NCBI GenBank assembly: GCA_054600435.1 | Contig: BAAIJX010000019.1 | Coordinates: 124,001 to 188,000, forward strand | Reading direction: 5' to 3' | DNA: 64,000 nt | DNA from: Neophaeotheca triangularis | Lineage: Eukaryota | Shown here: positions 31,956-64,000 of the stretch, one piece after another | How the letters are laid out: each line of letters starts with the position of its first letter | How positions within the stretch are numbered: position 1 is the stretch's first letter | The notes under the pieces: generated by a model | Told to the model about the DNA's origin: nothing | The model's input: only the letters and a program-made list of their open reading frames with translations | Databases searched by the model: none | Program-made: the position numbers and the translations under genes

Positions 31956-31966
31956 GGACTTGAACC
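31956..31966 (-). promoter_or_regulatory. Pol III B box downstream of U6 copy 1
   Basis: GGTTCAAGTCC on the minus strand, 35 nt past the T8 terminator. Confidence 0.7.
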
Positions 31967-32001
31967 TGTGCTCTACGGCTTACAATAGGTTTGAAAAGGA
32001 C

Positions 32002-32105
32002 AAAAAAAAGTTTGGTAGCTCACTTTACTTGCATGTGTCATCCTTAGTGCAGGGGCCATGCTAATCTTCTCTGTATTGTTTCAAATTGACCATTTGCCCG
32101 AGGGC
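32002..32105 (-). ncRNA. U6: U6 snRNA copy 1 (variant A)
   Basis: GCCCTCGGGCAAATGGTCAATTTGAAACAATACAGAGAAGATTAGCATGGCCCCTGCACTAAGGATGACAC...T8; ACAGAGA box, AGC triad and ISL present. Confidence 0.97.
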
Positions 32106-32519
32106 GGATAGGTGTAGCGGTATAGCACATATCTACACTCCTTAATTAGCGCAGAGCCTATCGGCTGCGTATTCTTACAGGGCTGTACTGCACATAGCAC
32201 TAGATCGTTGCAATCCAGTATTGAAGGAACACCGTCGTCTCGAGGAAACATTCTCTTCGACCTGCAACATCGATCGGCTCTCGTTGAAAAGTTAGATGTG
32301 GGCATCTACGTTCATTGTTTCGATCAAAGCCACGTCGGCAACATTGACAAGACAGTACTTAGGCATGAACATTGGAAGAGAGTTGGTTGTCTTTGCTATG
32401 TAATACCAATGCTAGCTATGCTTCATCCATCCAATAAATGCATGTAGACCAGCTGGAAGGAGAACCTATGCATAGGTAGTGCAATCAAACACTTGTAGTA
32501 CTGCTTCCAAAGAATCGTA

Positions 32520-33606
32520 TCACGGTAAGACGCTGGCGTCGCGCGCCTGAGCATGTAGACAATACTCGCGGAGTCTTGGTGTGCAGTGTTTCCAATCCCT
32601 CACGCAATGCCTAAAACGCGCATCATTGCCTTGACATTTGACAAAAGCCTCATCTTCTTCAAGATCGTCCCCGTTTGCCGCTTTAGTGATCCCGTCTCTC
32701 AAAGAAACCCCTTCTCCGTTCACCGATCTGAAATCCTGGTCAGGCTTGCCCTGTGTCCTACCCTGCTCCTTTTCCACGTCTTCGCCAACCGCGATCTCGC
32801 ATCACTTGCTCTTGTTCTTGTTCAGCAGCCTCCGCCCTTTACATTCTGCCTTGATCAGTCTCCTGACTGATGGCTCAGCTTCAGCCTCGGCCTCTAGCTC
32901 TTGCAAAATCTTGGCTATGGCTCTAGTGAGGGCTTTGCCTTCGACACTGAGGGCAGGGAGCTCTGACGCTGGGTCCTGTATGGCATACCAGTTCTCACTG
33001 ATGCCTCCTCTCGCCCATCAGTGAGTATGGGGAACCTCAAGCTGAGTCCATAGCAGTGCAGTTTGATGAACTAGGGACAAGAGGATATGAAATGTTTTCT
33101 CTTGGCCTTCGAGTCCTTCTTGATAGTCCCCGTCCTCGAATCCAACCCTACAAGATGACGCGTGGAACTCGATAGATTTCACCATTGCTAGCTTCTCGAA
33201 GCTGATGGCTGGACAGAAAGACGTGGCTGTGAAACACAAATTTTTGAGACCTTGCTCGTCGGAAGGTGGCAGCACGTGGCAAGTCTCATATATAGGTGCA
33301 ATGTCTCTCCGATCATCGGCAAATACGATCTTGAAAGTTACGATCTTATCCTGATACCACATTGGCAGTGCCTCGTACCGCACTTTAACAGGTTCGTGTG
33401 ATGTTAGGCTCTGCTTGCTCGGCGTACCAAGGGTCCTGGTAAGGCGCCCATTCTGCTTCCCCGGCGTGTTGATCGAATGGAATCTTCATGCGATTGACGT
33501 CGATCAGATCATCCTTGGCCTTCGCCACATGATCCTCGAGGATGTGGCTACTTGTGTATCTGTTAGTGGAAGTCCATGAGAGGAAGTCTAGCGCATCTGT
33601 TGACAC
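32520..33606 (-). pseudogene. Orphan family X member 2, decayed
   Basis: EPNITRTC followed by stop/frameshift (about 33384-33387), then VRYEALPMWYQDKIV...FCPAISFEKL; further in-frame stops at 33018 and about 32803. Confidence 0.7.
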
Positions 33607-35509
33607 TCACCATCATTCAATAGAGAGGGCGCGGTCATGTCATGGCCTCGCTCGCAATGCGGTGCTGAAAAATCCAAGGGAGCTGGACGTGACAGCGTGG
33701 ATAACGCCATGGCGGCCGGAATTTTCTCGTCGATCCCCAGACCAGTTGCAGATGGCAAACGTAATGTGGTTTGATCTTGATCGCCAACCGACGAGGTGTC
33801 GTCTGTGAGGTGAAGTGTTGCGGTTCAAGAAGTCGAAGATGTGTCGAGGCGCAAAGTTTGCAAGCTAGGCTGCGCGTCGACGTTAGCGTATGTGGTACTC
33901 ATTCACTTTGGGGTCTTGACAAACTATTCATGAGACCTTCTACTTCATGATTTATGAGCTATTTCTTCCATCTTATAGCAATGGATCCAACCTGAAACAA
34001 GGTGAGTCTTAACCAAGCGAGTTACAGTGAAGCAAACAAGTGATACAGTTGGATTCTGGAGAGCCTGGTATTTGTTCAGTAGCAACGTGTCTCGTATCGT
34101 TTTCGTAGCAGACCTTGCTTCCTCCATATCGATATAGCCTCCCGTGCTGCTCGCGCTGCCTGCCTGTCTACAATGCTGCTGCCCTTACGGAATAAAAGCC
34201 TCTCTCGAGCTATCCTGTCGAGTTTTAGGTCTCCAATGTTTCATACATGCTTTTAACCTTCGGCTCGAGAGCGTCTGTCTTCCTGTTGGCTCAGGTGGAT
34301 GTTGTACCTCCGTCTAGCGTGCGGGCAGTCTCTGGGTTGCGGGGGGCTTGATCTTACTAGGACCGTTTTTCGAGGGTTGGTGCACAGCGTATTCCAGCGG
34401 AAGGTTGTCTTGCTCATTCGTTCCTGGACGGATAGTAAGCGCTGTTCACGAGCCGAGCACTTGTAAAGGGCACTACGAGCATCAAAATATATCTCACTGC
34501 TAAGAGGGAGAGGGTATACAAGCCAGCAACATAACAGTAGAGGTGCTCGAGTAAACTTTGGGGAATATGGGTGCTAATACGAGAGCTCGACGAAAATACA
34601 GCTTTCGATTTGTTGCTGTCGAGGCTTCACAGGTAGACTGGAGGGACATTTGGGTCAAGTAGTTGGTGGGTGGAATAGCATGACTAGAGAAAGTAGCACA
34701 AATACATCGCTTCGGACTACACTATGTAACAACCCTTCATCCTAAACGGGCCCCAAGAGCAAGAAAGGGTACGTGCTGAACTTTTTTTAATGGTATTTAT
34801 GCCACGACACCCTTGAACCCATCAACGTGACCGTGAAACGCGGACCCTTCCTCGTGACTCGGTATAAAACAGGTGTCCATCAAAGATAAAAGAAATTCGA
34901 AATCCCTCTGAAGATATCGTGCGGCAGCTCATAACTGCCTCAGCCCCAGCGTTCTGTCGCGAGGCCACGATTTTGCCATCTCGAAGAGATAGAGCAGCCT
35001 GGAATATCTCTTTGTTCCACGGAGCGCGTGCAATTGATAAAGAAATGATAGGTGCCTTCTGAGCGCACTGTCGACAAGGTCTATGCGTTCGTTGTTTGAG
35101 ACGAAGAAAATTCTGGAAGCCCATGCAAGCCCGGCGGCCTGAGGGAGTGTGCGCGGTCGCTGACGAGAAAGGTCGCCTCGTTCGTTTATCTGAAAGCAGA
35201 AAAGGAAACGCCGAAATTGTCGGTGAAGTACAGCGATCGATGAGTCGTGCAATTTGGCTGCTGACTCGTCGCATGGAGAGTGTCGACAAAGTATGGAATC
35301 CTTATCTCGCTGACTAGGATGATCGGACAACAAGAGTCTGGCATCGCGCTGTCCCGAGAGTGACAAATTCGCGTCGACGCTGACCCGAAGCAAATGCAAA
35401 ACAGCTGGAGGTAATGTCGATCGCCAGTCTCAACGTCGGATTTTCCCAGGGCGACAACTTTGTTGCCTCGATCGGGTTAAGAGACTGCTGCGAGGATCAC
35501 GCTGACGTC

Positions 35510-36853
35510 TCATGAGGCAGACATCCCAACGCCGTTATTGGCGGCAGCATCCCTAAAGAACCTTATTACCCGAGTACCATCTCCCCAGACGAACTCCCGA
35601 ACGACTGCTACATCGATGGGCTCTTTGTCCGTATCTTTCTTGCTCGCAGCCTCCTCTTCACTTAGGGCGAACATCATCTGCATCATTTCCATCCTCAACT
35701 TCTCCACAAAATCAAGCCCAATCTTGCCGTGAGTTTCAGCGGGAGCCATAGGTAGGTAGGGGCGGGAGTGGTTGTGCTGCGACTTCATCCATGTGGCGAC
35801 ATCAGGCCTCTCGAGTCCATGCTTAGGATTCTCGATACGCGCCGGAGGATAAGTCTGGTGGGACATGAGGTCACCTTTGGTTATGAAGATGCGTAAGGCG
35901 TCCCAGTCAAGCTTTGTGCGGTAGGCCAGACGAAGTATAGTGAGTAGCATTTGCGACTCTGCCAGTTTCCCATTCTCGTAGACTTCCTCTGGCATGTAAA
36001 TAGGGCGTTCGAAGGCGGGGTTCATGTATTGCAGCTTGCCCTGGTGTATTGGAATCTGGAACTCGATCGCACGCGCTCGCTTCAATTTCTCGATGCTGAT
36101 GACGGGGCAAAACGGTATCTTGTCGAAGAGGTACTTTCGCCTTTGCTGGTTGGGGGCTTTGTTGGGGCATACGAGATCGCAGTAGTTGATATGGAGTACG
36201 ATCGTTTTGCTGGCGTAAAAAATAGGAAGTGTGTCGTAACGAGTGCGATACGAGACGCGGGTAATGGGTGGTTCAGCGATGACTGAACGTTCGCGCTTTT
36301 CCTGTTCGTCGGGGTAGGTGTGACGATTGTACTGGAGGTCTTCGCAAATTGTCAGTGCTATCTTGCGAGATCGCGTGTGGGTGGGATAGCTCCTACCGAT
36401 ACGATCGTCACCCTGCTCGAAGGCCGCTTTCTTCGCGACTGAGTTTTTGAATTCGTCATTCTTGTGCCCAGAATCCACCGCATCCGCCACAACGAACTCG
36501 TAGATCCTGTTCTGAAGCTCTTGCGGCAGGTCCATCAAGCGGAAAGTTTGATCTCTGGACTTTGGCTGGAGCGCAAGAGAGCTCTGAGCCAGAAGTGTCG
36601 TGGTTGCCGCTAGGTCTGCCGCTGGTTGTCGTCGGAGCATTTCCTCCACATCAAACCAGTCTCGGTTGACAGGACGGAAACGGTTCCCAAGGCAGGGAGA
36701 GCAGTTCTGGCTTCGGACTGGCCGATTCTCCCCTGACGGTTGGGCCTGTGAGTCATTTGATTCGGGAGTTGGCTGGGAACAGTGACCATGTTCACAGTGG
36801 CCAAAGGGTTGAGAGATTGAGAGCGAGGCCATAAGGGCCGCTGCTTCGTCCAT
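35510..36853 (-). CDS. Orphan family X member 3 (F-box/2EXR-like motif)
   Basis: FRLMDLPQELQNRIYEF, EPPITRVSYRTRYDTLPIFY and FCPVISIEKL; first ATG at 36853. Confidence 0.7.
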   Translation of the reverse strand: MDEAAALMASLSISQPFGHCEHGHCSQPTPESNDSQAQPSGENRPVRSQNCSPCLGNRFRPVNRDWFDVEEMLRRQPAADLAATTTLLAQSSLALQPKSRDQTFRLMDLPQELQNRIYEFVVADAVDSGHKNDEFKNSVAKKAAFEQGDDRIGRSYPTHTRSRKIALTICEDLQYNRHTYPDEQEKRERSVIAEPPITRVSYRTRYDTLPIFYASKTIVLHINYCDLVCPNKAPNQQRRKYLFDKIPFCPVISIEKLKRARAIEFQIPIHQGKLQYMNPAFERPIYMPEEVYENGKLAESQMLLTILRLAYRTKLDWDALRIFITKGDLMSHQTYPPARIENPKHGLERPDVATWMKSQHNHSRPYLPMAPAETHGKIGLDFVEKLRMEMMQMMFALSEEEAASKKDTDKEPIDVAVVREFVWGDGTRVIRFFRDAAANNGVGMSAS

Positions 36854-37369
36854 CTTTTGTTTGAGGGCTTGGAAGCGAGAAGTGGCAATGAGTGGTTTGA
36901 CTGAAGGAGGCTTCGTGCAAGATTGCAATTGTTGCGAAGGTAATTGGTCGAGAGGTAAGTTGAAAAGGCGTTGCCGTACGCGTGGCGGAAGTAGTGTTTC
37001 CCAAAGTGAATGAATCGCAGCGCAGGATTGAAATACAAGGTAGTGACTCGGGTGAGAGCTAGCCAAAAGAGTAACTGCTGATGCTAACTCGAACGATGTG
37101 AAGATGTAGTGTCAAGTGAAAGGAGTTGCCGGGGTTTGGTTGCAAAACGCGACAGGTGATTTTCTGCTGTATAGCGCACGTTCCACTATAACAACATCGC
37201 AAATATGCTATTTATCGAGCACCTGTCCATATACACAGGTAATGTACACAGACCCATTCATGGTGAAAAGTCTCCTACCTCTGCATGCAAGGTAAATGTT
37301 AAGAGCTCATATTGGTCCGCTCCTTGATAGATATAATAATGCAACCAAAAGAAAGCCTTTCTCAATGCG

Positions 37370-37380
37370 CGTCTCGAACA
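37370..37380 (-). promoter_or_regulatory. Pol III B box-like element downstream of U6 copy 2
   Basis: TGTTCGAGACG on the minus strand, 40 nt past the terminator. Confidence 0.55.
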
Positions 37381-37420
37381 CAAAGCCTCTTCTACTCCCT
37401 CCCTTTTTTCCAAATCAGGC

Positions 37421-37524
37421 AAAAAAAAGTTTGGTAGCTCACTTTACTTGCATGTGTCATCCTTAGTGCAGGGGCCATGCTAATCTTCTCTGTATTGTTT
37501 CAAATTGACCAAATGCCCGAAGGC
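37421..37524 (-). ncRNA. U6: U6 snRNA copy 2 (variant B)
   Basis: GCCTTCGGGCATTTGGTCAATTTGAAACAATACAGAGAAG...T8; body identical to copy 1 except nt 4, 12 and 13. Confidence 0.97.
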
Positions 37525-39221
37525 AAGAGGCTTTGATGTTTGCTGAATATACTGTTTAAAGTACTTTGTTGCCTAGATGCCAGAGACTCATGTGTATCTC
37601 AGTGAGAGCGCGGTGGCCACGTTGTGTTCTCGAGGTTGCAATGTACAGGACCGCTGGAGAATCTCTTCGCAGGCTGCTCCTGAAAAGCATTCGACCATCC
37701 AACAATTGATTGGGACGTGAGCAGTTGGCAGGAAACCAAGTCGAGAGGCAGCTGATATGGTTTCACGCTGAGGTTGGCAACACTTTCGGTACTTGAGGTT
37801 GTTATCAAAACTGGTGACTTCCAATGCTGGATACCTCGTACATAGATTATTCAATCAAACAATGCTCAATCAACTTCTCCGCAACCACATGTGCGAAGCC
37901 GCAGTCGAACTCAAGCCCCTGGAGAGGGACTCCTTGAACGCCTTCCAATGCCTCCCACTTTCTGGAGATGAAATTGAAAAAACTCCCGGTCATTGAGCTT
38001 CCTACCCTTGAGGCTGTCCTCCTTGATACCTTCGCCATTCTCCGGGCGCTTGACAGCAACACGATGCATGATCTTGTTTGCCGCTTTACCATTGGGCATA
38101 TCTGCTATGATATGTTCAGTGACGGATAGCTAGTTGAATGGGAGGCAATATATCAATAGATTGCTTATGGGGTTTGAGCAATGTGGAATCGCAACACGAA
38201 GGCACATCTTTGTCTAGCAGCACTAGAACTGCAGACAGTAAGCGAGGCAGACTTGGAGAGACCGTTGACAGAGCAATAGCTGTGAGAGGATTGTACCACT
38301 ATTTCCAATTATGAAGTTCGACAGAGCGCATTGCTCTAGGGTTGAACAGCCTTCGTGATGTTCGATGATTTGAGCCTGCATGTTATGCGGCAGTTCTAAC
38401 AGATATCGTCTAAGCAAAGAGCTTGCACAGAAGACGCCCTGCAGTGGAAAACGATTGTATTCGGTCTTTGTCTGTTACTGTAATATAACTTACCTTCTTG
38501 GAAATAGGAGATCGTTGTGACAGTGTGCAGTGGTCTCTATTACCAATGCTCATCCAGCTAGATAGCAGATATGAATCACAGGAGGGAAACCACGAAGATA
38601 CTTAGTGTTACCTAGTGCAATGGTGGTTATTGGAGGGCTCCACGTGGGGCACGCCATCGCCCGCTGTCCATGACATCTGGGCGTCTGATCTGAAGGTAGG
38701 TTAAAGAGCGAGCTCTTCATGCGTTGCACCAATTCTCGAGGCGGCTCCTCTAACACACCAATGGAAACGTCAAGTAAGCGGTCATGTGGTAAACTTATTG
38801 ATGGACGAGGTGAAGTTGCCTCGTTACGAGCCAAGACCGAAGTACTGACGTTCTCGAAGCAAAAAAGCCAGCGATCGCGCCATCTGGACCCGAGAGCGGT
38901 TTCGGCCAATCAAATGAGTGTTTTATAAGCCGGTGGCAGAAAATGTGGGGGGGACAAGGGTTTGGGGAAGCTCGAACGAGACAACGAGACGACTTTTTGC
39001 CGACGCCGACGGGATTGACTGACTTCTTTGCCTCCCGACTTCGCTCGCTCGCTCTCATTTACTACAACAAGCAGACCCTTTGTCTCTTGACACCACCAAC
39101 AACAACCACTACCATCCGAACCTTTTACGGGTTTCAGAGGATGAAATAGCAGCAATACACCCCCCTTCCCACAACCTCCCCCATATTCATCTGATTGCTG
39201 GGACTGGCTCACCCTCCAAGC

Positions 39222-50066: not shown

Positions 50067-51224
50067 ATGAAGCAGTGGAACCTGATCGGCACCGGCAGCT
50101 TCGACAACCTCCAATTCAAGGACGTCGAGAAGCCCAGCTATGGCGACAAAGAAGTCCTCGTCAAGTGTTCGTCTCACCTCCTTCTGAACAAAGCCATTTC
50201 CCCGGTAGGCCCACTAACGAAGCCCTACCCACCAACCAGTTCAAGGCTCCTCTCTCAACTACCGCGACCTGATCATCCCGCAAGGAAAATACCCTTTCCC
50301 TCTCGGCGAGAATGTCGTCCCCGCCTCCGACGGCGCCGGTGTCGTCGAAGCCGTCGGCAAAAACGTCTCGCAATTCAAGCCCGGCGACAAAGTCCTGCTC
50401 CTTTTCAACCAAGGCCACCACTACGGCAGCCTGAATGCCCAATCCATGGCCACGGGCCTCGGCGGCGCCGTCGACGGCTGTCTGCGCGAATACGGTGCAT
50501 TCGACGAGATGGGCCTCGTGCACATGCCCAGCAACCTCAACCCGCTCGAGGGCGCGACGCTCACCTGCGCTGGTCTGACCGCCTGGAACGCCCTCTATGG
50601 TCTTGAGAGCAAGAAGCTCATGCCCGGTGATTGGGTGCTTACACAGGGCACGGGCGGTGTCAGCATATTCGCGCTGCAGTTCGCCAAAGCGGCTGGTGCG
50701 AAGGTCATCTCGACGACTTCGTCCAAGGAGAAAGCGGACCGCCTGAAAGAGCTGGGAGCAGACCACATCATCAACTACAAAGAGGACGCCAACTGGGGCG
50801 ACTCAGCCATGAAGCTCACGGGCGGCAGGGGTGTCTCGCACATCTTGGAAGTCGGCGGGCCCACGACCATGAAGCAGAGTCTGGCGGCCATTGGTATTGA
50901 CGGCGTCATCTCTATCATTGGCTTCCTGGGCGGCATGAAAAATGAGAGCCAGCCCACTTTCCTCGACTGCTTGATGAACATTTGCACCGTTCGCGGCATT
51001 TTGGTCGGCAGCCGGGTGCAGTTTGAGGAGATGAATAAGGCTATTGAGGCTAACAACATTAAGCCTGTCGTCGACAAGAAGGTTTTCAAGCTTTCGGAGG
51101 CTAAGGAGGCGTATCAGGTGAGTTTTGCCCTTGCTGTGAATTTGTGCTATGGCTTTGCTGACTTTTTGGGTAGTACATGTGGGAGCAGAAGCACTTTGGC
51201 AAGCTGTGCATCAGCTACGATTAG
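50067..51224 (+). CDS. Zinc-type alcohol dehydrogenase-like / MDR quinone oxidoreductase
   Basis: SLNYRDL, SDGAGVVEAVG, TLTCAGLTAWNAL, QGTGGVS, KHFGK; introns at 50167-50239 and 51118-51173. Confidence 0.9.
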
Positions 51225-51365
51225 ATGGATATATATACGCGGTGTACATGACTCGTTCCTATTCGTTCTTCGTGGAGCTCTTGCATCCCACTTGTCACCA
51301 TAATCCTGCCCCACCGCTCTGGCAACATACCCCGCCCCAGCCCGCTAAGATCAGTTTTGGTATCT

Positions 51366-53907
51366 CTAGAAGCCGTAGTTGCCGAAAATTCCTTCTGCAG
51401 CTAAAGCAGAGCGCAGTCGCTGCTCCAAGTCTTGATCGCCAGTGTACGAGGGACTAGGCGCTCCAGCGAGGCTCTCGGTGGGGTTCAACTCGGTCGAACT
51501 GGGTGAGCTGGTGCCTCGTGTGGGGGGGATGTCTGTGTTGTTTTTTTCATGATCAGCGCTCAGGGTTGGAGAGGCGGTGAGGTCGATGATCGCTGGAGGG
51601 CTCTGGGGGATCGGGGTTCTGTCTCGAGATTGGTCACTGGTAAAAGGTTGCCGATCGGCTTGGACGCTGCTCGTATCGAGGAGAGACTCGTTGTAAGTTG
51701 CGTAGTGCCTACCATCGGCTGAGGGAAGAGAAAGATGACCGCTCCCAAAGCCGCTGGTATCGCGAGAGTTCCCAGTGCCGTGGTAATCATTAGTGGTGGT
51801 ATGAAGCTGCGGCGGATGTGGCTGAGCGGCACCAACGACAACGGGGCCTGCTAGAGACCTCTGGTTCCAAAAGCCGGCACGGGCGGGTGGTAGGCTGTCG
51901 CCCTCGAGACCATTTTCTTCGCTGGGACGACAGGCAGTGATGTTGCGAAGCTGTGGCTGCCGATCTCCGGCGCTCACCGAATCAGGACAATCTCCAAGGA
52001 AGACATCGCCGAACCCGACACCAAATCGCTCTGAGGATTGGTCGTTGCCGCTAAAATATGTGTTCTGAAACTCCGGTTGCTGAGATTCTGCGGCACCCAG
52101 GTCAAAGGGAGCTTCATTGAAGAGGTCGCCGAAGCCAATCGTCGCTTGAGCGGCGTAAGGATCGGAGCCGCCGGGGAACTCATCGCCTAGGAAGCCGTAG
52201 CCGATGGTGCTTCCATGTCGCTGCTGCTGCGGGGAGATTTGGGCGGAAGAGGGAATGCTGTCGACATATCTCATACTTTGCCTGAGGCTCCGAGTCACCG
52301 CGGCGTCTGATGTCTCGGCAGGAGGTAGTACCTGCCCACTCTGTGGGGAGCTGAGGTCCCGCCTAGGAGAAGCTCGGAGGAACGGCTCTGGGGTGCTGCT
52401 CAGAACCCCTGGCTGAGCGGAAAAGTGCCTCTCCTGGATCTGGGACTGCAATGGAAACCATGGCGCCGGGGGCTGGATCATCTCGTGGTACTGCTGTCGT
52501 GCGACGGAAGGCTTGGCGTATCCTGACATGATGCCACCATTGTAGGAATGAGAATTTCCACCGGGATGCTGCTGCTGCGCACCTTCTTGCAGGGTTGGTA
52601 TCCCTATCCGGCCACCGAAATGGGATCCAGTAGGAGGCTGGGGCCACTGCACAGAGAAAGTCGCAGGAGCGTCAGGCGCAATAGCTGGGATTTGGCCGTC
52701 AGACAGCTCGGCTTGTTGCGTCTGGCTTTCGATTGCCGGAGAGAAAGCACGAGTCCTCTCAATTGCCCCAGCCTCAGCTTGATTACCTCCGATCGACTCA
52801 ATACCAGCGTTCGAGGACGGAGCCGGCGCAAGTTTTCTGAGCTTGCGAGGACGTGGTCTTTCATCCTCTTCGGACGGGTTGCTGGAAGGAGATGCCTGGA
52901 CAATACTTCGAGCGGCTCTCTTGGTCTTGCGTCCTTTACTGCCTCCTTTGGGCGCCGAATTGCCTGGCTCGTCGGCGATGAAGAGGCTGTGAGGGGCGGT
53001 AGAAGTCTTTTGTGCACCGACGCCATTCTCAAATGTGTTGGTGAAACTTCGGCCTGTATTCCCTGGGCTTGTGCTCTTTTGGGATACTGCTGCCTGGCCG
53101 GCGAACTGTTGGACTTCGGAGTCGAATGCTCCGCTTCCGGGGATTGACGAGAAGTTGTCTGGATCTGGCAGCTGCTTACGACTACCGAGAGGACCTTTGC
53201 GACCCCTCGCCGCATTCGATCTGACGTTTGCCAACTTCCGCGCAAGGTAGGCGGCCGGAGCGATAGTGAGATCTTGAATATGTAAATGCATTGTCGATCA
53301 ACATGTCCTTGACCACTCGCTTGTTGAGCTTCAACCCCTTTATGATCAAGCCAACTCGAACGCTGAAGGTTGATATCCGATCTACATTGTATCCAGTGTC
53401 GGTCTTGACGACAGGACCGTCCGTTCGTACCCGGTGGTAAGAGATGCCCTCCTCGTGGAAGTTCTTTGCATTCCCCACAAGCTTGACAGCAACCGCGCGA
53501 GCTCTCGAGTCGAACTTTGCGTGCCGCTGGTACTCATGGACCCACTCCGCTGCGTCGGAATCGTCGTTGCTGGTCTCCCAGAAACCCTCGAACACCTTTG
53601 AGGCCAAGAAGTGGAAGCGCTCTGGCGTACAGTCCTCGACATCATCGTACTCCAATTCCAGCTTGAAACGTTTGCCCGTCTTGCCGCGCAGGAAAGCTTC
53701 GGCGTCTTCGGCGTCGATGAAGTCGGGCTTGTACACGGGAAAGCGCGTAATGATCCCTTTGGTATTCCCAAGCTCCTGTGCCTTTCTCTTCCTACCTTTT
53801 CCCATGGTCAAACTCTGTTCGGTCAAAACGGGCTCTTGAGCGTCTTCGAGCATGATGGGGTTTGAAGAGACGGCTGGTCCAACGCTGGCACCAGTGAGAG
53901 TGTCCAT
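51366..53907 (-). pseudogene. Orphan family Y member 2, frameshifted
   Basis: ORF 53182-53952 (FSVRVGLIIKGLKLNKRVVKDML) continues in another frame near 53290 as IQDLTIAPAAYLARKLAN..SN, matching the contiguous motif in member 3; no room for an intron. Confidence 0.65.
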
Positions 53908-54867
53908 TGGACGAAGACTTTGGAGAGATTTTTGGTAGAAGCCCCGTTGCAATGGGTCTCTAGAGAAAGGCGAAAGCTCGGTGGCTTAAAGTAACGACGA
54001 ATTTGTCCCTCTGCTGGTGCCTATGTCTGTGTCTAGCCGTGAGCAGCTCGCGACTTTTTTCCTTCTTGTATAGCTTGCTATCAGCTTCGAGTTTCGTCAA
54101 GTAGCGTGAAGAAATCGGTCTTCGAGTAGAGTTTTGTTGTATAATACTCTGTAGAGCAAAGTCGTTATTGAGGTGGAAGTATAGCTAAGCAGCTCGAGGT
54201 TAATGGCTGCCTAGAATGTAAAGTGAAGTTGAAATCACGTGTTGTTGATTGTTGATGGCTCGGGACCAGTGCCGTCTTCGCGGTGATAGCCATATCTCTC
54301 AGTATCGTCAAATAGACTATAGAAGTGACGTATACGCAATGTAAAGCGTGGTGCTTAGCACTGTTTGAGGAACATTATAGTACCATGTATAGAGGTAACT
54401 AGGCGGGAAAGATAAATGCCAGAAAAAAGAATGTTGAGAAACACCATCTATGCTTTGACAAAGCAACGCTTGCTGCGTTGTTTGATTCATAATTTCATAT
54501 CTACAATCTGCTGAACCGGACCATTGGCGAAGAACCTCAGCTACAGGAATTGCTCTTGAAGAAGTTGGCTGTCGAGAACAGTAGCCATAGCGGCAAATAA
54601 AGAGGCTTTTGTAAGACTTGCTACATAAACTTTCAACGGAAGGCGTGGTTAAAAGTTCAAAGGCACGGCGTAATGGGCACTCAATGGCCTGAAATGCACA
54701 ATTAGGCATTCCCTCAATAACCTGAATATTCTTCAAGTCAGAGACTACACTATCGCGTTGCATAAAAAGCTTGCTTCGTGTATATGAAAAGAAACTGGAA
54801 GACTTTCTCCTTTCTTTCCAAGCGCTGCAAACTCAGAGTATATATTTGATTCACAGCCAAGCTTCTT

Positions 54868-54970
54868 GCCTTCGGGCATTTGGTCAATTTGAAACAATAC
54901 AGAGAAGATTAGCATGGCCCCTGCACTAAGGATGACACATGCAAGTAAAGTGAGCTACCAAACTTTTTTT
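54868..54970 (+). ncRNA. U6: U6 snRNA copy 3 (variant B)
   Basis: Same sequence as copy 2; TATATAT at 54839-54845; T7 terminator. Confidence 0.97.
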
Positions 54971-54999
54971 GGCCCTTTTCACTTCCACTCTTTGGCCAG

Positions 55000-55010
55000 C
55001 GTTCGAACTA
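55000..55010 (+). promoter_or_regulatory. Pol III B box-like element downstream of U6 copy 3
   Basis: CGTTCGAACTA, 29 nt past the terminator. Confidence 0.55.
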
Positions 55011-55938
55011 CCTTGGAAGCCAGCTCTTCCCTTCTATTTTTTTTTCTTTGTACGACAAAATTCTCACATTCATTTGGGTGTTGCGCACATTCCCAGCTTC
55101 CAGTTCTACCGGCAACACAAGCATGACTTAGCGGCGAGGTAAATATTACCCGAAGACTAATAGGCATTGTTGGCCCTCACCGCCGTAGAAGCGAGCTCCA
55201 GCCGTAGGTACTTCTCTTCCTTGAAGCCGTGTTCACGGGGAAAGGATTGCTCAGCAGCTCCTTGTCCTTACAGACAGGAGATGTTTCTTTCTGCGCTCCG
55301 TTAAAGCGCATCCCTTCGTTAGCTCTTTGTTCGAAGTCGCCTTCCAATCTGTCTTTGCTCGAGTCTGGACTTCACTCTCGGCGCGATCTCCCAGTGTCCC
55401 GCTAGCCGGAGCAAGAGAAGTGACAGCGGTCTCCACCAAATCCAGATATAGACAAAAGAGAAGAGACTGGTAGGACGAGGGCTTTATGGATAAACGTGAA
55501 TATTCAGAACGTTTACGGATCAGGAATGCGGTCGAGGATTCAACCAGTCAAACATCAATTGGCCTCGTGATGTCAGTATGTAGCAAGCAAGATCGGAGAT
55601 TGCTTTTACAACTTACTTTCCAAAGCGAACTACCTTCGATCAAAGACTTGTGAGGGAAATGTGTGAGACAATCAGACTTGGCGATCAAATTGGATTGTGC
55701 GAGTCAATGCATACATAACTATATAAAAGCAAAGAGAGTCACGTAGCTACGTTAGTAGGTTAATGGATAAGGTAAACTTAGGCAATCCACGCGCCAAACA
55801 CGAAACCTATCCTAACGCCCGCTAATTGCTACCAAACGTCCCAGATAAATGCCCCATCCCCATAACGCACGTCCATGTTCCTCTGCTGCATCAGAGCTCG
55901 GCCTTGTCGCTCTCTTATGCTTCCCAAAGATCTTTCCA

Positions 55939-57780
55939 CTACTGCTGACCTTCAAAGTCGAAGTCCATCAAAGCCTCCATGCCAGGCTGAACGTACCCTG
56001 AGAACCCATTCTTCGGTTGCTCCCCATCAAGGCCAAGATTATCCATCTCGTTGTTACCGAAGTCATGTCCGATCCCTTGACGAGTACCTCGCGCTCCCAT
56101 ATCGTCGTCTCCGTGCCCCAAAGTAGCAGCGCTCTGATCAATTAAATCATCGATATCGTGCTGTGTCAAGCTCTGAACCATTGTTTCCCAGTCTGGGTCC
56201 TGCTGTGACTGCTCAGAGGGTGCGCCAGAAACCGCATCTCCGCTGAGGGTGACTTCCGGCATTTGGGGATTGTTGAATGAGTTGATTGGCGCAACCGGGT
56301 CTGCTCCGCTTGTAGATAGTTGGTTCTCGAGGTGCGACTCATAAACAGAGGAAGCACACGGGTGGCTGGTCTGAAATGTCCCGTGATGACTGTGGTTGCG
56401 GTAAGCAGGATGCTCAAGGTGCTGGCTTGCCATCAAGTGCGTGTAGTTCTGAGAATTGTAGCTTGTCATCGGGATGTGCTGGTGGAAACATTGCTCGTAG
56501 GCCACTGCCTGATCGCCGGGGAACATTGGCTGATGTTGACCATTAACCTGGGTGATTTCGTTGCCCTGGAATTGGTCGCGAAGAGCATTTGTCAGCTGTT
56601 CATCGCTCTGATCGGGCATCGAGGTGTAGGCAAGAGTGGAGTGTTGTCTCTCGTAGCTGGGAGTCGGCGGAAGCTGCTGTTTGGAACTGTACGATTCAGG
56701 AGTGCTGTTGATGAAATCCCCATAGCTTGGAGTGAGCGAGTGCTGCTTCTGCTTGTTCACAGGAAAGGAGTCAGGGGTGTTGATGATGAAGTCGACGGGA
56801 GTCGCCACTCGAAGAGCTCCGACGGTGGCAGCAACTTGACGAGCTCCTGCTTGAGGTACAGCTACTTTTTTAGGCGTTTGATCGACCCTTCTGTGTTTAC
56901 GAGACGCCCCTTGAGACAACGAGCGAGAATCGTAGACGTTAGATGCACTCTCAGTTATGGTGACAGGAGTTTGAGCATTCGGGGCAGTCTCCGAAAGAGC
57001 CATCATAGACTCGAACGGTTGAACCTTGTTAAGTTTGCTTGGCTTCGCGCTCTTCGGCTGAGAACTTCTGTCTGGCCTTTTGCAGTTGGTCTGATTGTTG
57101 ATGACCTTTCTGTGGAGATAGTCTTGGGGCGCTAACGCGAGATCCTCGAGGCGATTAGAGAACCCTTTGCTCAAGACGTCTTTCGCGACGAGCTTGTTGA
57201 CGCTTATAGCTTCGACGATTCCATCTACGCGCGCCGAGAAGATCAAACTCAAGTCCACGATATAATTGCTCAGCGTTTTCGTCTGCTTGCGATCTCTTTT
57301 CAGCTTGTGACTCGGCACTCCGTCTTTGTGGATGCGTTTTGCAGTGTCGACCACGAGCATTGAGATTGCCAAGGCTCTTTTGACTTGATCCGCGTCCTGC
57401 AAGAGCCTGCGGCAGAAATTGAGCGCCTCTTTCTGCGACTTCTCGTGTTTCTCCGCACCGCCATCATTCAGCCCTTCCGGCGACTTGTGTTCGTGGAGTA
57501 GTGCATGGAAGACGCGACAGGCCAATTCATGGACCTTGTCTCCTTCAACGCTTGCGAAGTCGTCGTCAGGGAGGTTTGGTTTGACCATCTTCGTTGAGGC
57601 CCCAGGTTCACCACGCAAGAAGATCTCAGCATCTTCAACCGTTTTGAAGACAAATTGATAGGCAGGGGCCTTGCATTCGGTGTCGGTGAGGGCTTCTGAC
57701 GCTTGTCTCTTTCGCTTATGGTTAGCAGACATCGTTCGAGGTGCGCTTCGCAAGTGTTCAAACTCGTCGTTCTCGTTCAT
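55939..57780 (-). CDS. Orphan family Y member 3 (613 aa)
   Basis: FKTVEDAEIFLRG...FSARVDGIVEAISVNKLVAKDVL...DLALAPQDYLHRKVIN..TN, aligning by eye with members 1 and 2. Confidence 0.7.
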   Translation of the reverse strand: MNENDEFEHLRSAPRTMSANHKRKRQASEALTDTECKAPAYQFVFKTVEDAEIFLRGEPGASTKMVKPNLPDDDFASVEGDKVHELACRVFHALLHEHKSPEGLNDGGAEKHEKSQKEALNFCRRLLQDADQVKRALAISMLVVDTAKRIHKDGVPSHKLKRDRKQTKTLSNYIVDLSLIFSARVDGIVEAISVNKLVAKDVLSKGFSNRLEDLALAPQDYLHRKVINNQTNCKRPDRSSQPKSAKPSKLNKVQPFESMMALSETAPNAQTPVTITESASNVYDSRSLSQGASRKHRRVDQTPKKVAVPQAGARQVAATVGALRVATPVDFIINTPDSFPVNKQKQHSLTPSYGDFINSTPESYSSKQQLPPTPSYERQHSTLAYTSMPDQSDEQLTNALRDQFQGNEITQVNGQHQPMFPGDQAVAYEQCFHQHIPMTSYNSQNYTHLMASQHLEHPAYRNHSHHGTFQTSHPCASSVYESHLENQLSTSGADPVAPINSFNNPQMPEVTLSGDAVSGAPSEQSQQDPDWETMVQSLTQHDIDDLIDQSAATLGHGDDDMGARGTRQGIGHDFGNNEMDNLGLDGEQPKNGFSGYVQPGMEALMDFDFEGQQ

Positions 57781-59256
57781 GTTGTTGTAGTTAGTTGAGT
57801 TGAAGCCTTTCGATGAGGGAGAGCGGCCAGCTTATAAACCACGAGCGTTGCGCCGGCGCGTTGTGTTGAAAACCCTGGTGCCAGCCTCGAAAGTGATATG
57901 CGACATGCCAAGGTGTCTAAATAACGCATCAATGAGCCCACTGTAGTGTGTTGTAGATGCAAGCAGCGTTCTGAGCTTCCCTCCGAACTCCTGGCCTTCA
58001 CCAAATACCACGTTGACCATCTTGATATAAGGTGCATCATCCAGATCGCTCAACACGTTGATGCTTGAGAAAAGTGTATACAACCGCGACTTTGCGCAAT
58101 CTCTGTTAGACACTCTCGCTCATATACCTTCCATGATTGGGGACCGCGCATGATTCATCAGGCTTCTAAAGCCTTGTACTGGGTGTTCCCCTCTCTCATA
58201 GGTATCTCGCTCTGATGCTGCTCTGCAACAGTACCTTGAAGACGAATAAAGGAGATTGCATGCCTTTGCAGTAGGTCTGGAACAAATCAAAAGGTAGCGA
58301 ACGATCATGAAAAAATGTTTCTTTGACAGTGAGCCCAACGTATCTTAGACTCGAGCTTCGCCAAGATACGATCGCAGACAAAGAAAACATAAGGGGTGGC
58401 ACTGGGGCTACACACTGGTCTTTGTCCGTGTTCTTTTGTCCTTGCGAATTGCCGCGAGCCGGGGATATGTTCGACACTCGAGCAAATGCTCCATCACCAA
58501 ATTCATGTGTTTTCCAGCTACACTGTAAATTTTACCGCGGGAGCATGTCGCGCAATACCAGTAGCACCTCCCTACCCCTTTCGCCTCGAGTTTTGTGACC
58601 TTACTCTTTCGTCTTTACGTCCGTCCCTAGTAACAGCTTGTTGTCAAAGTACGACCACAAAAAGTCGCTGTTCACCGTTTGGCGTGCGGAAATGGGCGTT
58701 ATCATTAGATCAGCGGTTGCCCAGGTTTGGAAGGTCGTGTTGTGTTCGACGTGTCGCAGATGCACGAGGTAGATTGATCCAGAGGGGTCGTGCCATGTAG
58801 AGGGCTAAATGAGAAGGGGAACGTTCAAAAAGCCTTAATCGTTTTCGTAGGCGTGTAAGAAGCCAGTATCGAATCTTGAGCGGTCGCAGAATCAATTCCT
58901 TCCGACGGGTGGTGAGTATAGTTCTTGCTACTCGCCTCAAACATACAGACTTCCCGCTATGCCTTCGAGGGGTCGTTGTGACGGATTGCTTTATAGCTCC
59001 AAGATGAAAACACAAGTCGAAAGAAATGGCTCGCAGACCGAGCTGGCGCTTGTGCACTAGGATGCAGTAGCAAAGTCAGTTTGCAAAGGCCGAATCGCAC
59101 GTGGGAGTACCCCAGAACTTTGTGCTCGCGTAAAGAAATTGTGAAAACTGAATCGCCGTGCAAATGGGCGATGGCTACGGCCGTGCCGACGTATAGTTGG
59201 GTCAAGACTGTCCACAGCAACTATGGTATATATATGCTACACCGCTACACCTATCC

Positions 59257-59362
59257 GCCCTCGGGCAAATGGTCAATTTGAAACAATACAGAGAAGATTA
59301 GCATGGCCCCTGCACTAAGGATGACACATGCAAGTAAAGTGAGCTACCAAACTTTTTTTTTT
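59257..59362 (+). ncRNA. U6: U6 snRNA copy 4 (variant A)
   Basis: Same sequence as copy 1; TATATATAT at 59227-59235; T10 terminator. Confidence 0.97.
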
Positions 59363-59384
59363 GGGCTAAACCGAGTGAGTCCTG

Positions 59385-59395
59385 CGTTCGAAACA
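59385..59395 (+). promoter_or_regulatory. Pol III B box-like element downstream of U6 copy 4
   Basis: CGTTCGAAACA, 22 nt past the terminator. Confidence 0.55.
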
Positions 59396-60198
59396 TAGCC
59401 TAAGCCTTTTGTTTTGTTGCTACGACACGCTATTATAATGTCGAACAGGACATAAGTATGACGAACATCTGTTAGTATCGTGTGTAGTAGCGTAGTTGCG
59501 CATCTTCCCTTTCTGCGTTGCCTTGAAACATTGTGATGGCATATTTGCGTAGGGACCTCTTCTTTTGTGAGATTTACTAAGCGTTTCTTATGAGGTATCT
59601 TGGTATAACCATCGTTTTCGCCTCTTTTCCCCGCGCGTTGTATTGCCACAAGCGAAACATGGCTTTGTCTGTCGAAAGACTCCTCCAGGACTGAGGAATA
59701 GCAAGGGAGTAGTCAAAAATTTGGAGGACTCGAGGGTCAATCGAGGCTTAACAGCTGCCGTAGAGACAGTACGAAGACTTGGCTCACTTGTTCGCTTCGC
59801 ACTGTTCAATAGGAGGAGGAAAGACTAGAACTTGCTTATGGCGTGTTGCACTAAGAGTCTGAGAAAACTTCCTCTACCCCTGGGAAGCCCGCCAGTAGGG
59901 TTTTGGCCCATGCGATGTGGACAGCCACTTGTAAGTTAGCCTTCTGTCAGAAATAAAGAGGCCGTTGAGAGGGCTTCAATTGGGGGAACACGACAGAGAT
60001 ACAGCACAGACAGGCAAGGTAAGGTGAACGACATTGCTAGCGGTCCCTTCACAAGATGAGACAACCGTCTGACCCTAGGCCCCACTGTATTGTGGTAGCC
60101 ATGTGTAATACGGAGCGAGCAGTGCGCGGAAAGGCAGACCAGTGTCACTTGGTCGCAGCAATAGAGTCATAATTCACAACTTTCACTTTCAAAAAGTC

Positions 60199-60231
60199 AA
60201 AAAAAAAAAAGATTGAAACCGGGCTCGAACG
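60199..60231 (-). terminator. B box-like motif plus T12 run downstream of U5
   Basis: Minus strand reads CGTTCGAGCCC (60231-60221), then GGTTTCAATC, then T12 (60210-60199). Confidence 0.5.
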
Positions 60232-60239
60232 AGTGGCTT

Positions 60240-60336
60240 TGTGTTTCCAAAGATTGTTTTTCCGACTTAGTGCGATGGGCCAGGGATACATGTGGTAAAA
60301 GGCAACGAGTATACTGATTAACCCAACCGCGTCGGT
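60240..60336 (-). ncRNA. U5: U5 snRNA (possibly a variant copy; ends approximate)
   Basis: Invariant loop I TTGCCTTTTACCA; stems CCGAC/GTCGG and GCGGTTGGG/CCCATCGC; Sm-like site AATCTTTGG at 60255-60247. Confidence 0.8.
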
Positions 60337-60600
60337 GCTGGGTCTTCGGTTTTGCATCATATCTACTCTTGTTACATCGCCCCAGTTGTATCTCGCCCTC
60401 CAGGCATGGTGGCCCATGCGCAATGCTTCTGCCTAAGTCTCCCATGCCGCGTCCCACCTCTCTCCCAACATCCTCACCCACCACCATTTCAATCTCCGAC
60501 CTTGCGCGGTCTGGAAAGACCCTCACCATCTCCATTGCAGCGCACAAGCATCCATGGTGAGTAGCTGCTCTGCAATCTTCCCCTGGGACGCATCTCTCGC

Positions 60601-60682
60601 ATGATGAAAACACGACCCAACAGCGTATGGACGTTCTTTTTTCGAGTCCAATGATCGCATAACAAGTATTGTTTCAACCTGA
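60601..60682 (+). ncRNA. Intronic box C/D snoRNA 1, guide antisense to U6
   Basis: C box ATGATGA 60601-60607; D box CTGA 60679-60682; GTATTGTTTCAA (60666-60677) is the reverse complement of U6 nt 22-33. Confidence 0.75.
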
Positions 60683-60901
60683 CAACACGCGATTCTTCCG
60701 CCTACTCTTTTCACGTACGCGCCTTCAACCCACGCCCAGCTGACATTTGTACCGACAAGCGCGCGCAGGCGGCCGTCGGGACGCCCCATCCAAGCACCTT
60801 CGATGCGACATCATTCGCCGCGCTCTCTGTACCCAAGCTTCTGTGCCCCTTCATCATCGAAACACTGTAAGGTAAGATGAACTTATCCAACGCACCCTTG
60901 C

Positions 60902-60985
60902 ATGATGATCACCGCAGGCAGCGAGTGGACTGTTGCTAGTCCGTCATGAGCCACTGTCGACTACTACATAGAATCAACCATCTGA
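60902..60985 (+). ncRNA. Intronic box C/D snoRNA 2, guide antisense to the 18S rRNA 5' end
   Basis: C box 60902-60908; D box 60982-60985; GACTACT...AGAATCAACCA before box D. Confidence 0.75.
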
Positions 60986-61207
60986 ACTCACCTCAACCAC
61001 CCCACTACTATTCGCATAAGAAGAAGCCTCCCTAGCTGACACCGCTTTCCGAGGCAGCCACGCATAGAGCACTTCAACGAGCTCTACGCAGCACTGCAGC
61101 AGATACCCAGCTTCTCACCACCAATCTTTGGAACGTTGTCAAGAGGAGTCCTTGGGTGCCAAGTGACCTTTAGGTAAGACCAAACATATTTCCGATTCCA
61201 CATCAGC

Positions 61208-61293
61208 ATGATGAAATCCAAAATACCCGAGAACGACAGTTGCTTGTCTCCAGTGTTCGACCTTTGACTACGGGTTGAGAATCAACCATCTGA
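61208..61293 (+). ncRNA. Intronic box C/D snoRNA 3, paralogue of snoRNA 2
   Basis: C box 61208-61214; D box 61290-61293; shares the 18-nt AGAATCAACCATCTGAAC and upstream GACTAC with snoRNA 2. Confidence 0.75.
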
Positions 61294-61623
61294 ACAGCTC
61301 AGAATCCGTTCATCTGCATTGCTCATCCACGGAAGACGCGATCTGAAGCTGACGCCCTCTCCAACTAGGCAAATGCCATGATCTGCGACCTTCCTACAGC
61401 CAACGCAATCTGGCGTGGCGCAAGTAATGTTCGGCTGTGCGTGGCCCATAAGTGTCAGAGAAATTTGTGGAGAGACTTCCTTGGGACAGCTGCCATCTCG
61501 TCTGTGCTGCCCAAAGAGCCTCCAACGGTAGGGTAGCTGCTGGAAAACAGCAGCACCAGAGACTGCTAATGTTGCGCTGTGCCAGACGACGAGTAAGCAC
61601 CCTCCCATCTTTTGTCCTGCGTG

Positions 61624-61697
61624 CTCGCGAAGATGATACCAGGTTATCGCAATTGAGCACTGTGTGCGGTGAAAAGATCAAGAACGGCCTGAGCGGG
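61624..61697 (+). ncRNA. Intronic box C/D snoRNA 4, two guides antisense to the 18S h33/h34 region
   Basis: Degenerate C box AAGATGA 61630-61636; D box 61689-61692; terminal stem CTCGC/GCGGG; guides GTTATCGCAATTGAGCA and AAGAACGGC. Confidence 0.7.
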
Positions 61698-64000
61698 CGG
61701 CGACCTGGCGAGACAATTATGGACATCAGGACCGAGAGTCGCGCAGAAGCTGACAACATAGAGGTCCAGAGGAGCGATCACCGTAGATGCAAGAGCCACC
61801 GTAGAGTGTTCTGCAGACAAGCGTGCTGCAGATGTTACGCACGACAGTAAGGACGCCTTCGAAGAGGCCATGGCCTTTCTGGCCCGAGAGAGGTAGACAT
61901 AAACTGCTCGGGTTCGACAGCACTAACCGTTCGAGAAATCGAGGGTGGCCCTCGTCATCAGAGCCTCGAGCCAGACAAAAGGTATGCTGCAACCATCTCT
62001 TTGTTCTGATTTCATTATTCCTTATCCTATTCTTTCCCCATGCAACACATCCCGCACTCGGAACGCAGTACTGCTGTCGACGCCTCACGACGATTGCACG
62101 ACCAGAAGACTAAAGAGTAGCGCACCATGTTTTCGCAAAAGCTATTATGGTGCGAGTCGAGCCGATTAATATGCAAAAAAGGTCACAGAAGATGCACTCA
62201 AGTCTTGCGAGCCTTCCCGCAAACAATCCACTATTTCCGCCGCACCGGCCGCTCAGCCGCATTGCAACGTAGACTACTCAACTCTCGATCTCTTGAGCCC
62301 CAGGCCAGCTATCATTATGCTCAAGCCACCAAAGGCACGGCCTCCGGAAAAGGGATGAGAACGGAACACCGCCCACCTCCCAAGGCTCGCAGAGTCGCGG
62401 GCCTTTGCGGCTCCGCTATGGAGACAAGAAAGCCGACCACAAAAGAGGCCAATTGTGGATCTGGAGATGCAGCATCTTGAATCATGGCCTGCAATGAAGA
62501 CGGCCGAACAACAATTGGCGACTTTCATCGCTTGTCCATGTGTACAACATTCCGACGCTCCCTGCGACCGCTACTGTGTCTACGTCTCTCTCTCACCCGC
62601 ACGACACCGCAAAGAAAGCTGGAAAGAGTAGAAGGGAACCGGTAAGTAAATTTGCGGGAGGAGGCTTTCGAAAATCGAACAAGACACTTCTTGATGTAGG
62701 GAGCGTAGACGGAGCGCGCAGAGCACCGATACTTGATGAAGCCTGTCTGGGAATCCTCACCTCCCTAGCTCCCACGCTTCTTACTTGAGGCCATTGCCCC
62801 TCCTCGCGAACGGCCAGAGCTGGAAAGTAAGGAACCGAGTAAGAGCTGGGGCAACAATGAAGGTTCAGTAATTGCAGGCGGAAGCTGTGAACAATCGGTA
62901 GGATTTTGCAGCGACAATAGCTGGGTTGGGAAGCAAGAGACGGAAGCAATCATACCGAGATGTTCGCGTGTCCGAGCATGCTGGATATTTGGCACGGCAA
63001 GAGCATGTTGGTACAAGCACGGAGGGGCAATGAGCACCCCCGGGTCCGAGTAAAAGCGACGGTGAGTTTCCACCGCTCAAGATCCAGAAAATAACAAGCG
63101 AGGTGTGTCTACGCTGGGGCTATCCAGCCTTGACACTCGAGAGCTCTGTTCGATATCGAGATTGGAGCCTAGGCCTCATTTGAAACACTATCACACCACA
63201 TGATCTGTCACGCTTTTCGCGCTATTGGGCTGCTTGGGTGATCGTTGTTATGGGCCGCTGACAAATGCGGCTCAGGAGTCAGACGCATTCCCCTTGCCAC
63301 TGCGTCGGCCGCCCATCTTTCCAAGACTCCTAGTCAGATCAACAAAGTTCTTCGAAGCATCCGTTTGTCAACTTGGCTCGCGAGAGGCGACTGGCGCTTG
63401 AGCATCATGACAAAGTCAAGACTCCATGTCTTCGAGAAGAGAGATGTGTTGCGGGCATCCGCTGACCCATAGCCAGACTAGCTGGGCTCTCAGAGCCGTA
63501 AACGAATCAATGAGGGTTTCGGACACCATGTACGGCATTGACGAGCCTTGGCAGCTCGCGTCGCTATTGCCCTGAGAATGCCCAAATCACATGGCCGAAC
63601 AGTGACAGGCCGAAGCAAGGTCGTAAGCAGCTTACCCTTCAAATGGTCTCTGCCTCGCCCGGCCGGAGGTTCGTCTACCAAGGTCAAAGCTACCTGGTAC
63701 AAGGCTGCTGTTATAGGCCTCACCACAGCCACCACGTCTCTCTTGATGCTGTCTTCCGTCCTCTCCACTAAGCCCCTCTTCCCTCCCGAGTTTCCGTCCG
63801 AAATACCATGCCTTTGAAACACCACAAGAAGCCGCGACAACCTTCTCCATGCCCAGAGGGAAAAGATCAAAGGAAGGAAGAGTTCGGAAAGATATGGGGA
63901 AACAATATAGCGGGGAGAAAGAGACACTCGGCGATGTTGGCGTCGAAGTCATAGGGAAAAGCTGGCGAGATGTCAAGAGGAGATGACAATCACAAGGCTT

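Follow-up and report, generated by a model that had tools for sequence, protein, structure and literature searches.

Four genes for U6 small nuclear RNA (snRNA), a probable U5 snRNA gene and a non-coding host gene carrying four predicted small nucleolar RNAs (snoRNAs) of the box C/D class are found close together in a 64-kb stretch of the Neophaeotheca triangularis genome (contig BAAIJX010000019.1, positions 124,001 to 188,000), referred to here as the window. Both strands of the window were scanned, and coordinates are window positions. On the anatomy of the sequence, this is probably a genuine small-RNA neighbourhood, in which U6 units of the Saccharomyces cerevisiae SNR6 type arose by local duplication and in which U5 and a UHG-like host gene lie nearby by accident and not as part of a co-regulated domain. 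Each U6 gene would be a self-contained RNA polymerase III (Pol III) unit whose downstream B block recruits TFIIIC and TFIIIB, and the copies would have spread by local duplication. If the host transcript is spliced, its first four introns would each yield a single box C/D snoRNA. The first of these, snoRNA 1, would pair with nucleotides (nt) 22–33 of U6 and direct fibrillarin-dependent 2′-O-methylation of A25. U5 and the snoRNA host gene would be separate transcription units, placed near U6 most likely by historical accident and not in an operon-like arrangement. A protein-only annotation would show this 30-kb stretch as orphan open reading frames (ORFs) around MET5, and there are nine small-RNA genes there.

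Four U6 genes and their clustering

The whole window was scanned with Rfam at curated gathering thresholds, followed by a permissive rescan of 30–64 kb and then a 2-kb search. The original prediction of four intact U6 genes is confirmed by four full-length matches above the RF00026 gathering score, which are the only gathering-level matches in the 64-kb window. Scores are 78.6–81 bits (cut-off 44) and model positions 1–105 are covered in each case. The ACAGAGA box, the AGC triad, the 5′ stem-loop and the 3′ U-tract are seen in all four alignments. The genes, lettered a to d in order of position (Table 1), consist of two pairs with identical RNA parts, a and d (variant 1) and b and c (variant 2). 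Differences between the variants are confined to nt 4 and 12–13, in and just after the 5′ stem-loop. The two arms are mirrored around a 17-kb block with MET5: transcription order in each arm is variant 2 and then variant 1, with variant 1 outermost and variant 2 innermost.

All four genes display a TATA-like box at about −30, which reads TAGATAT in a, TATATT in b and, in its canonical form, TATATAT in c and d. A run of 7–10 T follows at the 3′ end of each. A GTTC[GA]A B-block core is present 30–46 nt beyond the annotated end of every U6 gene, with a chance of 0.021 per site and 1.8e-7 for all four, and this core supports a TFIIIC-type promoter for each of them. The full B box shows 1–3 mismatches to GGTTCGANNCC. 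No distal promoter motif appears to be shared, as no k-mer of at least 7 nt is common to the four genes upstream of −33.

The layout resembles that of SNR6 of S. cerevisiae, with an upstream TATA box, a T-run terminator and a post-terminator B block, the latter bound by TFIIIC in yeast (PMC5855946). With this layout, each of the four genes is probably transcribed singly by Pol III. The B block of yeast SNR6 lies about 120 nt downstream and the gene is single copy, whereas in the window there are four copies with the core much closer to the gene. Also unlike the SNR6 layout, the four genes lack a convincing A block: even the closest intragenic match has 3 mismatches. Other fungi are likewise reported to have multiple U6 genes per genome and to employ TATA, A and B elements flexibly (PMC5855946). 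The four promoter/terminator cassettes are of potential use for guide-RNA expression in poorly studied black fungi.

Past the B block, a second T-run is found at two of the genes, T10 at 31853–31862 (−), about 145 nt past U6 a, and T9 at 55037–55045 (+), about 70 nt past U6 c. There is no second long T-run at b and d. The second runs may be back-up Pol III terminators.

Clustering of the four U6 genes is far above chance expectation. For a genome of about 33 Mb (a size assumed from that of the sequencing runs), clusters of four genes in 27.35 kb are expected 2e-9 times with 4 copies per genome, 1e-5 times with 20 and 9e-3 times with 100. The first 30 kb of the window contain zero U6 genes by the Rfam scan. 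With expectations so far below 1, the cluster is most likely a product of local duplication. In a survey of 145 fungal genomes, U6 genes averaged 2.3 per genome and numbered 20 at most (Canzler et al. 2016, as cited in the excerpted text of PMC5855946); here four are found within 27 kb, unlike the survey mean. Two U6 loci are given for Aspergillus fumigatus in the excerpt of PMC2377427.

Similarity between U6 copies extends over 105–135 bp only, i.e. the gene and up to about 30 nt upstream, and the flanks are unrelated. A large recent inverted segmental duplication is therefore rejected: at the DNA level, the regions 30–39 kb and 53.5–61 kb are alike at the U6 units only, and a six-frame protein comparison of the arms gave a single 16-residue match, situated over U6 genes a and d. 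From the short extent of the similarity, two routes are inferred, either very short local duplications or old duplications with decayed flanks, the genes having been kept alike by selection and/or gene conversion. The matched pairs suggest an old inverted two-gene duplication with decayed flanks, or else that inverted copies have undergone gene conversion. Dothideomycetes are known for their frequent intrachromosomal inversions. The identical U6 genes, forming two inverted pairs, could themselves serve as substrates for inversions or for gene conversion around MET5.

Spread by a U6-targeting (Dada-like) transposon or by retrocopies was also considered and rejected, the four genes being uninterrupted, with promoter sequence retained and with unrelated ORFs between them. 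Two further TATA...T6 pairs, at 37310–37420 (+) and 54412–54522 (−), are not alike and were dropped. A 22-nt stretch from the U6 3′ part gave 0 loci in metagenome contigs and no match in a text search of the literature. Literature searches for linked or clustered fungal snRNA genes and for U6 in Dothideomycetes yielded nothing on such a cluster.

A probable U5 gene and a snoRNA host gene

A U5-like gene had been placed about 0.9 kb from the last U6 gene, and a single U5 match is indeed found 871 nt away, at 60228–60336 (−). It scores 37.2 bits, under the RF00020 gathering score of 40, with an E-value of 0.015 when 34 kb are searched and of 8.3e-4 when the search covers 2 kb. Loop 1 (GCCUUUUAC) matches the model at 9/9 positions and closes a long 5′ hairpin. 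When aligned to the model, the stem is paired, a few of its base pairs being non-standard. A free-energy fold gives the same long hairpin with z = −0.03, so that energy is uninformative. The Sm-like site AAUCUUUGG carries one C at a conserved U of AAUUUUUGG, and the 3′ hairpin is present. The element is thus a probable U5 gene, formally below the Rfam cut-off. No other RNA families were found between U6 d and U5.

The 10-mer GGCCCATGCG is found exactly twice in the window, at 59905–59914 and 60411–60420 (+), flanking U5. The first copy lies about 310 nt beyond the U5 3′ end and the second 75 nt upstream of the U5 start, within a short inverted repeat GCATGG ... CCATGC. Exact copies are expected about 0.1 times by our own estimate; with up to one mismatch there are 5 in the window, which is chance level. 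The 10-mer may be a shared promoter element.

Back-to-back with U5, and 220 nt away from its 5′ end, stands the snoRNA host gene. Its first C box lies at a distance of 264 nt from the same end, in line with the distance of about 0.3 kb originally predicted for the snoRNA cluster. The snoRNAs had been described as an intronic polycistron; they are intron-borne as stated, forming four box C/D units, and the gene is better described as a non-coding host with one snoRNA per intron. Exon 1 ends in an ATG (60554–60556) directly followed by a GTGAGT 5′ splice site. Each of the four introns has a GCTGAC branch site and one unit with a C box and a D box, with 30–44 nt from the 5′ splice site to the C box and 50–57 nt from the D box to the branch point. 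A scan of the whole window for this combined intron and C/D signature gave exactly four introns, all in the host gene. The C box (RUGAUGA) is perfect in three of the four snoRNAs, the D box is CUGA in all, and the units are about 71–94 nt long.

When spliced in silico, the host contains short ORFs only, 37 codons from the exon-1 ATG and 114 codons for the longest, from an assumed start. With so short a frame, the spliced RNA could be a target of nonsense-mediated decay. Such decay has been proposed for the animal UHG and GAS5 transcripts. The UHG-like hosts of Neurospora crassa likewise carry a single snoRNA in each intron, together with canonical splice signals and no more than short ORFs, and their geometry matches that of the four introns here (Liu et al. 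2009, PMC2780460). However, the excerpted text of PMC2780460 describes no U5 gene adjoining the N. crassa clusters. The 37-codon frame ends with the final codon of exon 2, immediately ahead of the next 5′ splice site (60554–60871).

The claim that the first snoRNA is antisense to U6 is substantiated by a perfect 12-bp pairing of the snoRNA 1 guide with U6 nt 22–33 (UUGAAACAAUAC), situated at positions 2–13 upstream of the D box. None of 2000 shuffles of the four snoRNAs reached 12 nt against U6, the longest being 11 nt, in 6 shuffles. By the D-box +5 rule, the predicted 2′-O-methylation target is U6 A25, just 5′ of the ACAGAGA box. A25 is taken to be the equivalent of yeast A40. With numbering transferred along the Rfam alignment, it also corresponds to human G34, a position outside the eight human U6 ribose-methylation sites given in the excerpt of PMC5855946. 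Nothing on methylation at this site was found in the literature searched, including RiboMeth-seq of fission yeast U6.

As a box C/D snoRNA with U6 antisense by the D or D′ box, snoRNA 1 resembles the N. crassa CD11/yeast snR53 family, mgU6-47 of Schizosaccharomyces pombe and vertebrates, and vertebrate mgU6-53 and mgU6-77. The target differs. CD11 pairs with GAUUAGCAUGG (U6-Am47, N. crassa numbering) and mgU6-47 acts on the last A of ACAGAGA, whereas the snoRNA 1 guide is complementary to UUGAAACAAUAC, on the 5′ side of ACAGAGA, with A25 as its predicted target. Thus snoRNA 1 appears as a new predicted U6 guide with a target site unlike that of mgU6-47 or CD11 (snR53), and A25 as a predicted new U6 ribose-methylation site.

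A U5-directed guide in snoRNA 2 (12 bp, 2 of them G-U) was rejected, as 107 of 1000 shuffles do as well. SnoRNAs 2 and 3, which agree in 62 of 99 aligned columns, are paralogues and share 16 nt ending in the D box, a 12-nt guide AGAATCAACCAT plus CTGA. Four metagenome loci (L001–L004) with the pattern of a C box followed by this guide are rejected as chance matches, about 3–4 being expected by our own estimate; they are unlike snoRNAs 2 and 3 outside the searched motif, with no U5 or U6 present. For snoRNA 4, a SNORD29-like alignment (16.2 bits, E-value = 8.8) is not significant.

Shared machinery, silent copies or chance

Several observations weigh against the explanation preferred here. In its small-RNA part, these are the sub-threshold score of U5 and the C in its Sm site, the weak terminal stems of snoRNAs 1–3, the lack of any Rfam snoRNA family for the four snoRNAs at E ≤ 1, and the finding by eye of no match between their four D-box guides and 55 N. 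crassa C/D snoRNAs. In its part on accident, U5 and the U6-guide snoRNA both lie within 1.3 kb of a U6 gene, with an a priori chance of about 2e-4 each (a rough figure for single-copy genes in 33 Mb, the proximity having been noticed post hoc). Also, positions −33 to −11 of U5, aligned with a single gap to −34 to −13 of U6 a, agree in 19 of 22 positions, and U5 is followed by T12. From this promoter likeness and the T12, U5 and U6 may share transcription machinery. Counted against coupling are the absence of a common U6 motif upstream of −33 and of splicing-related domains in neighbouring ORFs.

The strongest alternative, considered unlikely, is a functional Pol III neighbourhood. U5 would have a U6-type promoter and terminator and be made by Pol III, so that five TFIIIC/TFIIIB-dependent spliceosomal RNA genes would share factors and perhaps nuclear position, with a U6-modifying snoRNA made next door. 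The GTAGATATG sequence is common to the U5 and U6 a promoters, one base apart. None of 2000 shuffles reaches the U5/U6 a promoter score, and 21 of 5000 random 45-mers of the window do, a count that includes U6 promoters. U5 is without an internal run of at least 5 T because a C interrupts the Sm site (AATCTTTGG). A B-box-like CGTTCGAGCCC with 1 mismatch is situated at +106, in the 3′ hairpin, and T12 followed by T5 starts at +127, 10 nt past this motif. Runs of at least 8 T number six in the window, both strands counted, and each lies downstream of a U6 or U5 3′ end, on that gene's strand and no more than 160 nt away, a zone of 0.6% of strand positions. Among 28 runs of at least 6 T, only the four U6 genes and U5 show a TATA-like box 124–155 nt upstream of a run of at least 7 T. 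A polymerase switch is known for U3 (Kiss et al. 1991, as cited in the excerpt of PMC2784804).

Other observations count against this alternative. A TATA box near −30 equally fits genes of RNA polymerase II (Pol II). Matches to the B box with up to 1 mismatch occur at chance rate (14 in the 128 kb of both window strands), and the U5 motif lies in a palindromic hairpin (CUCG UU CGAG) that is T-arm-like by construction. No A-box match has fewer than 3 mismatches. The UCUU in the U5 T-run could serve Pol II termination by Nrd1-Nab3, and by textbook U5 and snoRNA host genes are Pol II units. No fungus with a Pol III-made U5 is known to us, and none appears among the matches listed in the literature search. 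In its full form, with U5 rebuilt as a U6-like Pol III gene (U6 proximal promoter, Sm site without an internal T5, B box in the 3′ hairpin, T12) and a five-gene Pol III domain beside a new U6 guide gene, the proposal is held to be quite doubtful. If the Pol III anatomy of U5 is functional, it would represent a polymerase switch for an Sm-class spliceosomal RNA in fungi and bear on polymerase choice, cap and 3′-end formation of snRNA genes.

Another explanation, likewise rather improbable, is that the cluster is partly dead, U6 a and b and/or the U5 gene with its aberrant Sm site being silent or variant copies and a working U5 lying elsewhere. The TATA boxes of U6 a and b are degenerate and do not fit the canonical TATAWAW, the U6 B blocks are imperfect with their 1–3 mismatches to GGTTCGANNCC, U5 is below the Rfam cut-off with the C in AAUCUUUGG, and human U6 families are mostly pseudogenes (excerpt of PMC5855946). 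However, decaying copies are not expected to be identical (a to d, b to c), with catalytic elements intact in all four and differences confined to the 5′ stem-loop region. Terminator and B-block core are also retained throughout, loop 1 of U5 is perfect and its stems pair, and the U6 copies are not retrocopies because upstream promoter sequence is retained.

A chance grouping of very numerous, scattered U6 and U5 genes, for which the 20 copies of U6 reached in some fungi (excerpt of PMC5855946) might be cited, is highly improbable in view of an expectation well below 1 even for 100 random copies, the U6-free first 30 kb and the two matched pairs in mirror order.

Related systems, feature positions and neighbouring genes

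A close linkage of different small-RNA genes, as seen in this neighbourhood of probably locally duplicated U6 units, is also found in the U3 snoRNA–U5 snRNA pairs of Euglena and in the U3/tRNA/U1/5S cluster of Leishmania (PMC2784804). The authors of PMC2784804, in the excerpted text, explain the linkage as a duplicated ancestral one, perhaps retained for an effect on expression. Unlike in Euglena, where the pair is repeated 12 times, U6 alone is repeated here, and partners and lineage differ. Since linked small-RNA genes are known elsewhere, the kind is not new; the U6-U5-snoRNA combination and the predicted U6 A25 guide are new members. Positions of all features are given in Table 1.

Table 1. 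Small-RNA genes of the neighbourhood, with their predicted signals (window positions).
Feature	Positions	Strand	Score and signals
U6 gene a, variant 1	unit 31956–32135, RNA 32006–32105	−	RF00026, 78.6 bits; TAGATAT 32129–32135 (−30 to −24); T8 32002–32009; B-block GGTTCAAGTCC 31956–31966
U6 gene b, variant 2	unit 37370–37551, RNA 37425–37524	−	Rfam, 81 bits; TATATT 37546–37551; T8 37421–37428; B-like TGTTCGAGACG 37370–37380
U6 gene c, variant 2	unit 54839–55010, RNA 54868–54967	+	Rfam, 81 bits; TATATAT 54839–54845; T7 54964–54970; B-like CGTTCGAACTA 55000–55010
U6 gene d, variant 1	unit 59227–59395, RNA 59257–59356	+	Rfam, 78.6 bits; TATATAT 59227–59233; T10 59353–59362; B-like CGTTCGAAACA 59385–59395
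Probable U5 snRNA unit	60199–60366, RNA 60228–60336 by Rfam model	−	RF00020, 37.2 bits; GTAGATATG 60358–60366 (−30 to −22); B-box-like CGTTCGAGCCC 60221–60231; T12 60199–60210
Non-coding host gene of the snoRNAs, portion containing the snoRNA-bearing introns	60554–61769	+	GTRAGN ... GCTGAC ... AG signals
Host introns	60557–60759, 60872–61053, 61174–61368, 61593–61761	+	alternative AGs of last intron 61763, 61769
snoRNA 1, box C/D	60597–60686	+	C box ATGATGA 60601; D box CTGA 60679
Predicted U6 guide of snoRNA 1	60666–60677	+	12 nt antisense to U6 nt 22–33
snoRNA 2, box C/D	60898–60989	+	C box 60902; D box 60982
snoRNA 3, box C/D	61204–61297	+	C box 61208; D box 61290
snoRNA 4, box C/D	61626–61696	+	C box AAGATGA (1 mismatch) 61630; D box 61689; CGC/GCG terminal stem

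The MET5 protein between the inner U6 genes is confirmed as sulfite reductase beta by Pfam domains. Its top named relatives are from rock-inhabiting Mycosphaerellales/Teratosphaeriaceae, with 79% identity, and the remaining named matches, among those listed, are all from ascomycetes, mainly other Dothideomycetes. Genera represented among the named relatives include Meristemomyces, Oleoguttula, Elasticomyces, Friedmanniomyces, Hortaea, Zymoseptoria and Cladosporium. Judged by this protein, the lineage of the window is Dothideomycetes. ORFs neighbouring the small-RNA genes between 28 and 64 kb show no splicing-related domains, the other ORFs being domainless or having weak domains only. In 28332–37111 and 45903–57831, most of the long ORFs (463, 470, 533, 630, 643 and 666 aa) are without a Pfam domain or show only sub-threshold 2EXR or F-box-like domains. 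The 630-aa ORF, which lies between U6 c and U6 d, has no usable match in Protein Atlas. Thus the small-RNA genes are embedded in lineage-specific genes around an alcohol dehydrogenase gene and the conserved MET5. The 64-kb window contains no tRNA genes.

In a second sequencing run (X2) of the same organism, only 0.33 of the sampled words of 54500–62500 are present; therefore strains or close species differ considerably across this region. Outside the neighbourhood, at 24355–27718 (−), two adjoining ORFs jointly carry HisKA, HATPase_c and receiver domains. By its domains this is a hybrid histidine kinase gene, whose division into two ORFs probably reflects an intron or else a change of frame in the raw reading.

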